A stretch of DNA of 64,000 nucleotides from assembly GCF_006345805.1 (NCBI RefSeq), contig NC_042998.1, positions 30,814,001-30,878,000 of the forward strand, read 5' to 3'. Source of the stretch: Octopus sinensis. Lineage: Eukaryota. Under the pieces are notes generated by a model. The model saw only the letters and a list, made by a program, of their open reading frames with translations, did not search any database and had not been told where the DNA came from. Position numbers and translations under genes: made by a program. Numbering within the stretch: the stretch's first letter is position 1; every line of letters starts with the position of its first letter. Shown here in pieces: positions 22 to 3,000 of the stretch.

Positions 22-3000
22 GTGAGTTTTATTCTATACGTAATAAACAATAACCTTTTTCAAACATACTTCCTACGAAGGCATCATATTATTTTGCATA
101 CTGTTTAATTTGACGAAATTCTAATTTTATTCTTATTTTCGAACTCTTACAACAATATTCTCTTGCCCCTGACAGATAAATATTTCACATATTCACCGAT
201 ATTTTTGTGATATATACTGTTATGATGCTTCTCAATTCTCCTTGTTTTAAATTGACAGCTAACTTCTGACTTGATTCATCGTAAATCAACTGTTTCAGGT
301 CTTTCACTTTTACAACTTAATCACGTTTTTGCCTCAATTTCTCATTATACAAGAGCTGATTGTTTTCTTTATCAGGGTTCTGTAATATATCAGAAGCGAT
401 GGATGATGAATCTTTCCTCCCAGATACAGCCATCTCTCTCAATCCACCAGTTGGCAATCCCGGTGACATCAGACCAGACTTTGGATGGCTAACTAATTCC
501 AATAGCAAAAGGATTATCACATTAGATATTGGCCCCAGCCTAGATGACGGAGGTACAATTCGCCTTATTCGACACGACAATGTGAAATCCTTTACGGTTT
601 TCATTTCACGTCCATCTGCAAAAATGCAAATCGAGGTATTCACTACTAGCTCTTTTCTTCATTCTATTCACAAACAATTTCCAATCGCACAATATAAAGT
701 TCGAATACTCAACGTTATCTCGTTTTAATCATTCGATTCTCTCTTGCTAAATTAATCGATAATATTCATTCATATATATCATAGTGAAATCTGAATCTTT
801 GAAAGCATCACCTGATTTATATTCACGTTTTTCGTTTAGTTGACGATTATTTCAATTGAATTTTCATTTCATTTATTAGACATCCTCACCAGATCGAACT
901 ATACACATTACACAACATAATGGTCAAACGACGGTGGAAATTGAAATTTTGCCAACCGATCCAACAAAAGATATGTTGGTAACTCTCTCTGCAAAGCTCT
1001 GTAAACGTAAGCAGTTTATATCAAATTTCCCATCATTAAATACATTTACATCGATTTCTACCGCATGCAATATATTGACAATTTCATCGAAATTTAAATG
1101 ATCCTTCCATCGTATAATTTGGCTTTTAATTCTCTATTGCAGACCCTATCTCAACAACAATGGCACCAGTCACATCAGCACCTACATCAACTCTACCAAC
1201 AACTACTCCACGTGAGTTTCATTATTTACAGAAGCGCCCTAAAACATAAAGTTTCACAAACGTTCTTTCTCAAGATCTCATCCGTTCCTGCATCTTCACT
1301 CAATATACGTACATCTATCACTGACAAAAAAAATGTCCTTGTGCAAAATCCGGCACATTTATTTAGTTTAAACCGGACTTCACACATTTTCATTAGTCTC
1401 CCGTCTCCAATATTGCTACATCATTCAACATCATTTTCTTTGACGACAAATTCAAAGGGATTTTTCTAGTCGGTTCTTTTGCCTATACAGTAATTACATT
1501 TATCAATAAATATGACCAAAACCATTTTTTCCATAGCACATTAATTGTAGTCTTTTGTAAGGTTCTTTAGATTGGCGAAGTTTAACTTTCTATTTTTTTT
1601 GCGAACCAATACAGCAATATTTTTTCGTCCCCAGTTACTGAATATTTCACATTTTCAACAATAATTTTGCGTTAGATCCTCTTAGGAGGTTACTACATTG
1701 TCCAGATTTTAAATTGTCCCCTTATTAAATTGACAGCTTACGTTCTCACTTGATTCATCTGTGCAAATATTTGTGAACGCATATTTCTTCAGCGAACTTC
1801 TCACACTTGACTACGTCGGAGCGTCGTTCACGTACGGATGTTCACGTATGCCCTCTACACTACGTTTCCAAAATATTTCAAACACATAATTCTTCATTCA
1901 AAACGACATTCACCTCACCAAATAAAATTAGTTTCATTTCTATCATCTAAATATGGCTAATAATTCTGAATCTTTTCAATATCGCCGAACCTCATATACG
2001 GAGTTTCCTTTACAATTCAGCGTCTTTTTAATCACCCGTCTTCACACATATAACTCATCGCCACCTTTTGTGTTCTTCTCATGGCATTTATTATACGAAA
2101 ACTAGTTTGAATTTCATGTTAGAAATCTCCATCTATATTTCATTTCCGATTAGAAGCATTTCAACGACACATGTTGCTAGCCTCCATTACATCTTATAAT
2201 TAATTGCCTCTAACTTTCCGCTTCATGTCTCCACAAATGTGTCTCTAATTTGCATCATAATTCTTGAAGACAATTCATATAAATTTCTATCGCTCATTTT
2301 ATATTTCCCTCGTCCAATGCGTGTCTAATACTGCACAAACTGCCTCCACTGCAATACATTTTCCAAGCCCATCCACCACCAGACAATGTCATTTATAGGA
2401 ATACAATTTCTCACCAATCTACTCTTTCATTTCTTTCAACTGAATCATGTTTTTGCCTCAATTTCTCATTATACAAGAGCTGATTGTTTTCTTTATCAGG
2501 GTTCTGTAATATATCAGAAGCGATGGATGATGAATCTTTCCTCCCAGATACAGCCATCTCTCTCAATCCACCAGTTGGCAATCCCGGGGACATCAGACCA
2601 GACTTTGGATGGATAACTAATTCCAATAGCAAAAGGATTATCACATTAGATATTGGCCCCAGCCTAGATGACGGAGGTACAATTCGCCTTATTCGACACG
2701 ACAATGTGAAATCCTTTACGGTTTTCATTTCACGTCCATCTGCAAAAATGCAAATCGAGGTATTCACTAGTAGCTCTTTTCTTCATTCTATTCACAGAAC
2801 CATTTCCAATCGCACAATATAAAGTTCGAATACTCAACGTTATCCCGTTTTAATCATTCGATTCTGTCTTGCTAAATTAATCGATAATATTCATTCATAT
2901 ATATCATAGTGAAATCTGAATCTTTGAAAGCATCACCTGATTTATATTCACGTTTTTCGTTTAGTTGACGATTATTTCAATTGAATTTTCATTTCATTTA

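Follow-up and report, generated by a model that had tools for sequence, protein, structure and literature searches.

The window analysed here is a stretch of 64,000 nucleotides of the Octopus sinensis genome (NCBI RefSeq assembly GCF_006345805.1, contig NC_042998.1, positions 30,814,001 to 30,878,000 of the forward strand), and all positions below are counted from its first letter. A total of fourteen copies of a small protein domain were found in it, thirteen in a tandem array and one further downstream, all on the plus strand and with Pro/Thr/Ser linkers between them. The subject of this analysis is the fold of this domain, its host, which is most likely a gel-forming mucin gene, and the role that it may play there.

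Each copy of the domain is encoded by two exons, A and B (Table 1), which in copy 1 give 129 codons (387 nt) together, as the original prediction had described. The two exons form a phase 1-1 module. Two cysteines are present in the first copy, one towards each end (residues 2 and 127), together with a single tryptophan, no tyrosine and one N-glycosylation sequon, and the charge is net acidic (12 Lys and Arg against 17 Asp and Glu). The protein motifs quoted in the original prediction were all found, although three residues and not one separate the first cysteine from EAMDD. AG/GT splice sites flank the exons in 13/13 array copies and in copy 14, which is 68% identical in protein to copy 1. 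Ten of the thirteen array copies read in frame, and a comparison of 121 codons between copies 1, 13 and 14 gives a ratio of nonsynonymous to synonymous substitution rates (dN/dS) of 0.48-0.58. Together with an annotated protein from Octopus bimaculoides in which the spliced domain occurs twice, these observations confirm that the 129-codon unit is a real coding module and not a chance reading. A transposon or a non-coding satellite was considered and rejected on the splice sites, the annotated homologue and a dN/dS below 1.

Only two proteins were returned among eight candidates when exon A was used as the query, both from O. bimaculoides, which is the only species with named relatives in our searches. 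The nearest named protein is a 1731-residue 'SCO-spondin-like' protein (P0001, 76% identical to exon A) that contains Pfam stretches for VWD (four), C8 (two), TIL (four) and LDLa, followed by two copies of the domain. The other (P0002, LOC128251500) is a 217-residue fragment with one whole and one partial copy, 77% identical to exon A. Both have the same domain, the same 23-residue linker repeat and the same exon B end as the window, and the domain is annotated in neither. The tail of P0001 (residues 1684-1731) matches the C-to-A intron of the window (2200-2325, repeated in every unit) with 44-49% identity in tblastn; the public model of this protein probably runs into an intron and stops, cut short, inside a similar array.

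A profile of eight rows compared with 1.84 billion representatives gave 26 matches at E <= 0.001, two of which (P0022 and P0025) were dropped as repeat-rich false positives of bacterial type. The remaining 24 have the pattern of the family, and most of them are single-exon open reading frames that cover exon A only, which is consistent with the same splice point in the relatives; these were cut by eye where the splice donor probably lies. Alignments A3 to A5 lack one further member. A later search, in which 8000 candidates of 245-2000 residues were scored and two proteins returned, so that long named mollusc relatives may be missed, yielded P0028, a protein with two copies of the domain (one lacking its start) on either side of a long Ser/Thr/Pro/Gly-rich tract. 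Alignment A3 contains 30 rows, with C2, M8, I19, R32, V69, M118 and C127 as invariant columns and P15, D16, P33, W37, G58, L63 and N68 conserved at 92-96%. The terminal cysteines occur in every row that covers them (C2 in 14/14, C127 in 8/8).

None of the F5/8 Pfam models matched six exon pieces of the window, eight alignment members or P0028 (E 10), nor P0001, P0002 or 25 search matches (E 1), which, with about two dozen unannotated relatives, fits the earlier suggestion of an unnamed subfamily. Sequence searches of the PDB with exon A and three profiles (E 10) found no discoidin. 'Pizza6' matches in the PDB were rejected as sums of weak 21-residue repeats, and an Atlas search with exon A alone gave just phage or bacterial hypotheticals below 0.85. 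Among proteins of 3031-5000 residues, none of 20 candidates scored.

The fold was modelled on homologues, one copy each from O. bimaculoides and P0028, and not on the spliced copy of the window itself. The O. bimaculoides copy is 77% identical to exon A and 71% to exon B of the window, and its model with alignment A3 has a predicted local distance difference test score (pLDDT) of 93.0 and a predicted template modelling score (pTM) of 0.87, with all five models above 91 pLDDT. The P0028 copy is about 22% identical to the O. bimaculoides copy and its model has a pLDDT of 89.4, the two models being not fully independent as their alignments have rows in common. A highly divergent discoidin or F5/8 type C (F5/8C) beta-sandwich had been predicted originally, and the models bear this out, as both form an eight-stranded jelly-roll beta-barrel across the domain according to Foldseek and an exhaustive structure aligner, with animal F5/8C domains as the top matches over the whole length. 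Foldseek gave 97 matches at E <= 0.001, and those listed are nearly all neuropilin b, factor V/VIII C, CBM32, DOC and IFT25 domains. Among the 48,161 chains compared with the exhaustive aligner, the best match of the O. bimaculoides model is neuropilin-1 b2 (Z 12.7, root-mean-square deviation 2.8, 124/128 residues aligned), and twelve of the top fourteen rows are animal F5/8C domains; the P0028 model reaches Z 12.4 (deviation 3.2, 123 aligned). Neuropilin b, DDR and factor V/VIII C domains are matched from end to end (Z 10.6-12.7, 121-125 residues).

Structure-based identity, averaged among the 50 listed rows, which are not independent of each other, is higher to animal F5/8C rows than to the others for both the O. 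bimaculoides model (14% against 10%) and the P0028 model (19% to 16 rows against 11% to 34 rows). In the language-model features of the Atlas, 10/10 of the best family-bearing matches belong to the same family or clan as the top one, an F5/8C cluster, at about 0.85, a sub-threshold score that serves as a lead only. The higher identity, the invariant terminal cysteine pair and the Atlas features argue for an F5/8C derivation, and descent from animal F5/8C domains is regarded as highly probable. Another galactose-binding-like branch (DOC/APC10, IFT25, CBM32 or F-type lectin) makes a very improbable ancestor. In its favour are Z scores equal or almost equal to those of many F5/8C rows (HERC2 DOC 11.6, IFT25 11.4-11.6, CBM32 up to 11.7), a length (about 126-141 residues) closer to that of the domain, and the lack of a PF00754 match; against it stand the terminal cysteines, the higher identity to F5/8C and the location in a mucin region where F5/8 domains are known. 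A bacterial CBM32 was rejected on the spliceosomal introns and the octopus homologue. As in PF00754 domains, a cysteine lies at each end, but neither F5_F8_type_C nor F5_F8_type_C_2 reaches the Pfam cut-off. On the models, the domain is placed in the discoidin/galactose-binding-like superfamily as a likely derivative of F5/8C and not as a strict PF00754 member. The terminal cysteines are likely adjacent and close the barrel as a disulfide, given that model residues 1-128 align to neuropilin, DDR and factor VIII over their complete domains and that RS1 has a terminal disulfide.

The domain is considerably shorter than its counterparts. Its 127-128 modelled residues cover stretches of 149-162 residues in 16 F5/8C chains, a deficit of about 30, and in place of the roughly 150-160 residues with three projecting spikes of an F5/8C domain there are 128. 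Going by the factor V C2 numbering of the shared motifs, spikes 1, 2 and 3 would presumably have lost about 7, 5 and 5 residues, respectively, and the C-terminal half about 13, which agrees with the 1-3 residues left between the strands of the spike-3 hairpin in both models. The three ligand spikes appear to have been cut to short turns. Like the F5/8C domains of neuropilin b1/b2, DDR1/2, factor V/VIII C1/C2, CASPR2 and RS1, the domain has a cysteine at both ends, and it echoes their canonical GM, I.D, RL, W, DLG and YV motifs as given in the original prediction. Its identity to solved F5/8C domains is 11-17% (13-25% for the divergent member). As the original prediction had stated, QG is absent from the spike-3 strand and most of the tryptophan motifs are lost, with one tryptophan remaining. 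In the last strand Ser/Thr replaces the F5/8C arginine, in an inferred register, and what is presumably a glutamate in F5/8C. From cysteine to cysteine there are 126 residues, compared with 157 in RS1 (C63-C219; PMC4728063).

In factor V C2, membrane binding involves three spikes with W26/W27, R43 and L79/S80 at their tips (PMC11098723), and both factor V and factor VIII require hydrophobic spikes and a basic cleft (PMC11098723, PMC9643838). The R2320S substitution lowers the affinity of factor VIII C1C2 for phosphatidylserine nanodiscs about 326-fold (PMC9643838). Factor VIII 2327 is the counterpart of model residue 128, by which residue 121 would fall on Arg2320, and this column is Thr in five and Ser in four of the nine rows that cover it. 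Besides the invariant R32, the inferred spike loops conserve G, P, N, D and I and no aromatic; W37 and Y/F72 are the only conserved aromatics and both lie in strands. The arginine (in the inferred register), the basic cleft and the hydrophobic spike tips of a phosphatidylserine-binding C domain are all lacking, and the phosphatidylserine site appears to be absent. Sugar binders of the CBM32 and F-type lectin families present an aromatic platform and His/Arg/Asn contacts in their loops. No aromatic platform or His/Arg sugar set was found among the conserved alignment columns, and columns 64-65 are variable. Given the net acidic charge and the lack of a conserved loop aromatic, the domain is unlikely to bind phospholipid, and no conserved sugar pocket is apparent. 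A Ca2+ site of the CBM32 type was rejected as column 123, in the last strand, holds S or T in 9/9 rows.

A long mucin exon follows the array, and beyond it lie copy 14 and a series of smaller exons (Table 1). The main frame of the mucin exon runs for 1503 codons with 74% Pro, Thr and Ser and no cysteine, and it forms the long Pro/Thr/Ser-rich (PTS) domain that is expected of gel-forming mucins. The exons downstream of it have AG/GT ends throughout and compatible phases, given the net +1 shift of the mucin exon. From the PTS, TSP1 and TIL exons and the O. bimaculoides homologue with VWD, C8, TIL and LDLa, the window most likely covers the central part of an octopod gene for a gel-forming, probably secreted mucin of the SCO-spondin/hemolectin type. 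A VWD-C8-TIL N-terminal region, threefold in gel-forming mucins, is in all probability encoded upstream, outside the window. The original prediction had missed this host, which belongs to a class of proteins with F5/8 domains described in Lophotrochozoa (PMC4948705). The exons at 53172-54165 are in phase, contain cysteines, lie directly before the TSP1 exons and may form a VWC-like or unnamed module. SCO-spondin-named proteins and mucins have been reported from octopus skin mucus, at the level of names (PMC11431876).

Table 1. Exons of the probable mucin gene and other coding features in the window.
Feature	Position	Strand	Description
Upstream exon C, end	1..21	+	Donor GTGAGT at 22
Tandem array	376..27855	+	13 A+B copies, 12 with exon C after them; unit about 2127 bp
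Exon A, copy 1	376..635	+	260 nt; AG/GT; phase 1 to 0; domain residues 1-86; first Cys, M8, PD at 15-16, I19, R32, W37, NV at 68-69
Exon B, copy 1	880..1006	+	127 nt; AG/GT; phase 0 to 1; domain residues 87-128; last three strands (DSSP of the homologue's model) and second Cys
Exon C, copy 1	1143..1211	+	69 nt; 23-codon Pro/Thr/Ser linker; phase 1 to 1
Mucin (PTS) exon, single	30899..36881	+	5983 nt; three frame changes near 31950-32370, net +1 shift
Exon A, copy 14 (divergent)	44304..44560	+	AG/GT
Exon B, copy 14	44792..44918	+	AG/GT
Exon C-like PTS linker	46167..46235	+	AG/GT; phase 1 to 1
Short Pro/Thr-rich exon	51600..51647	+	Predicted by eye; AG/GT; phase 1 to 1
Cys-containing exon	53172..53343	+	AG/GT; phase 1 to 2; 0 Pfam families
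Small Cys-rich exon	54119..54165	+	AG/GT; phase 2 to 1
TSP1 exon	54732..54890	+	PF00090, E 3e-10
TSP1 exon	56450..56623	+	PF00090, E 3.2e-9
TIL exon	58660..58906	+	PF01826, E 6.3e-10

Units 1-12 of the array measure 2123-2129 bp and are 96.8-99.7% identical in pairs, introns included. The array extends past the start of the window, which opens within an earlier exon C. Units 6/9, 7/10 and 8/11 (11008-23768) are 99.4-99.7% identical, compared with about 98% in other pairs; to judge from these identities, a three-unit block of 6.38 kb appears to have been duplicated recently, or duplicated in assembly. Copy 13 (24602-27855) is the edge copy, with 88% protein identity to copy 1, a longer and different A-B intron and no exon C, and its exon B is 93% identical to that of the first O. 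bimaculoides copy. A GC skew of about -0.3 runs across the array (window 1-26000), introns included, and reaches -0.7 over the mucin exon (32000-36000).

Five 1-nt indels in total were found in copies 2, 8 and 12. Private indels occur at about one per kb in exons and introns alike among the twelve aligned units: five frameshifting events in 5472 bp of exon, with one in-frame event of 3 nt, and 20 indels in 20016 bp of intron. Indels common to several copies number eight in introns and none in exons. Since the private rates are alike and shared indels are missing from the exons, we infer that assembly error explains the 1-nt indels better than decay does. Exons also have fewer shared substitutions for their length (7 in 456 bp) than introns do (54 in 1668 bp).

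Other elements were observed outside the coding exons. A 161-codon frame on the minus strand (28166-28651), within the intron before the mucin exon, resembles a fragment of a retroelement endonuclease. Two inverted repeats, one at 26517-27126 (294-nt arms, 98% complementary, 22 nt apart) and the other at 40341-41814 (232-nt arms, 98%, 1010 nt apart), are 83-85% alike and may be foldback elements or resemble miniature inverted-repeat transposable elements. A sequence of at least 300 nt is repeated in direct orientation within an intron (48247-48546 and 50395-50694, 99% identical, 2148 nt apart) on either side of a GC-richer stretch; the two copies may be the long terminal repeats of an element that inserted there.

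A discoidin fold in a mollusc mucin was to be expected, as Lang et al. (2016) found F5_F8 domains to characterise hemolectin and the mucin-like proteins of Lophotrochozoa (PMC4948705). These proteins and the SCO-spondin-like ones begin with a VWD-C8-TIL N-terminus, seen here in P0001, and continue with discoidin-fold domains interleaved with PTS tracts. Their F5_F8 domains were found with profile hidden Markov models, whereas the octopus copies are invisible to Pfam and have been amplified to at least fourteen. The word Octopus is absent from the single supplementary file of PMC4948705 that contains the relevant terms, and we found no description of the short domain or of an octopus discoidin-mucin in the open-licence literature. 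New in this annotation is a shortened, Pfam-invisible discoidin-fold module that was recently amplified in an octopod mucin.

A functional analogue of the domain is the CysD domain (Mucin2_WxxW) of MUC2, MUC5AC and MUC5B, which is likewise small, globular and repeated within PTS tracts. The likeness is one of function only, as CysD has five disulfides (ten cysteines) and a WxxW motif whereas the octopus domain has two cysteines and one tryptophan; its identity with CysD was rejected on the cysteine count, and no Mucin2_WxxW match was found in Pfam for the window exon pieces or the eight alignment members. CysD forms non-covalent dimers and has been proposed to cross-link the MUC2 gel (PMC3195396), and in lophotrochozoan mucin-like proteins it is inserted in the F5_F8 region (PMC4948705). 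By analogy, the reading that we favour, although tentatively, is that the octopus domain is a sticker and not a membrane binder, cross-linking the mucus gel through weak, multivalent and non-covalent contacts. With both termini at one pole, the barrel would hang like a bead off the O-glycosylated backbone. The barrels, at least fourteen per monomer, would make low-affinity contacts with other copies or with mucus components, and many such contacts would add up by avidity to a gel cross-link as proposed for CysD in MUC2. When a homodimer was predicted from two domain copies, without use of the alignment, the score was 0.00 ('no answer'), which speaks neither for nor against self-association.

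The first alternative is a lectin array, in which each barrel binds a sugar, either a microbial surface glycan or an O-glycan of the mucin itself, and repetition gives avidity. Multivalency suits lectins, galactose-binding CBM32 domains and discoidin I have the same fold (Z 9.5-11.7), and the discoidin protein RS1 has been purified on a galactose affinity resin (PMC4728063). This alternative is possible but doubtful, as no aromatic platform or His/Arg set was found among the conserved columns at the loop positions and identity to CBM32 rows is below that to F5/8C rows. The second alternative is an inert spacer that has lost ligand binding, a compact, disulfide-closed and protease-resistant bead in an array that was grown by unequal crossing-over and in which length matters most. 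The trimmed loops, the conservation mainly of core and turn residues, the dN/dS of about 0.5, the homogenisation of introns along with exons and the recent duplication of a three-unit block would all suit a spacer. It is nevertheless an unlikely explanation, given that the module has been kept between PTS tracts in proteins of only 22-36% identity (P0007 and P0028) and that shared substitutions are rarer in exons than in introns. Finally, a spike-pocket binder of anionic phospholipid, collagen or peptide is barely credible even though factor V/VIII, DDR and neuropilin domains are the top structural matches, as the domain is about 30 residues shorter and net acidic, has S/T at the inferred Arg2320 position in 9/9 rows, holds its sole tryptophan in a strand and lacks conserved hydrophobic loop tips.

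Several points weigh against an F5/8C-derived sticker. The fold alone does not single out F5/8C, as the best rows lead those of DOC, IFT25 and CBM32 domains by just 1-2 Z or so, and neither Pfam nor the PDB sequence searches link the family to F5/8C. Exon B is covered by few rows of the alignment (8-11), the placement of the 30 or so missing residues depends in part on the numbering of factor V C2, and the Arg2320 register comes from the end of the aligned range and not from a residue-level alignment. A dN/dS of about 0.5 across copies indicates no more than moderate constraint. As assembled, 3/13 array copies and the PTS exon are frameshifted, which makes an intact gene an assumption, and the sticker role would follow from position and analogy.

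The gel-cross-linking reading might be extended to a more speculative and improbable scenario, in which a Pfam-invisible 'spikeless' discoidin subfamily took on what CysD does elsewhere, in cephalopod and perhaps in molluscan mucins more widely. It would self-associate to cross-link the gel, and octopuses would tune the mesh size of their mucus by fast changes in the copy number of the 2.1-kb three-exon cassette.

What is gained here is a domain variant and a cross-linking hypothesis and not a new kind of system. A predicted fold can now be assigned to a repeat that had no annotation and accounts for much of a giant mucin, and the repeat provides a natural test of how the discoidin barrel functions without its spikes and the phosphatidylserine-binding arginine. 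As this short discoidin variant was missed by Pfam in every member tested, the domain counts in invertebrate mucins are likely to be underestimates.

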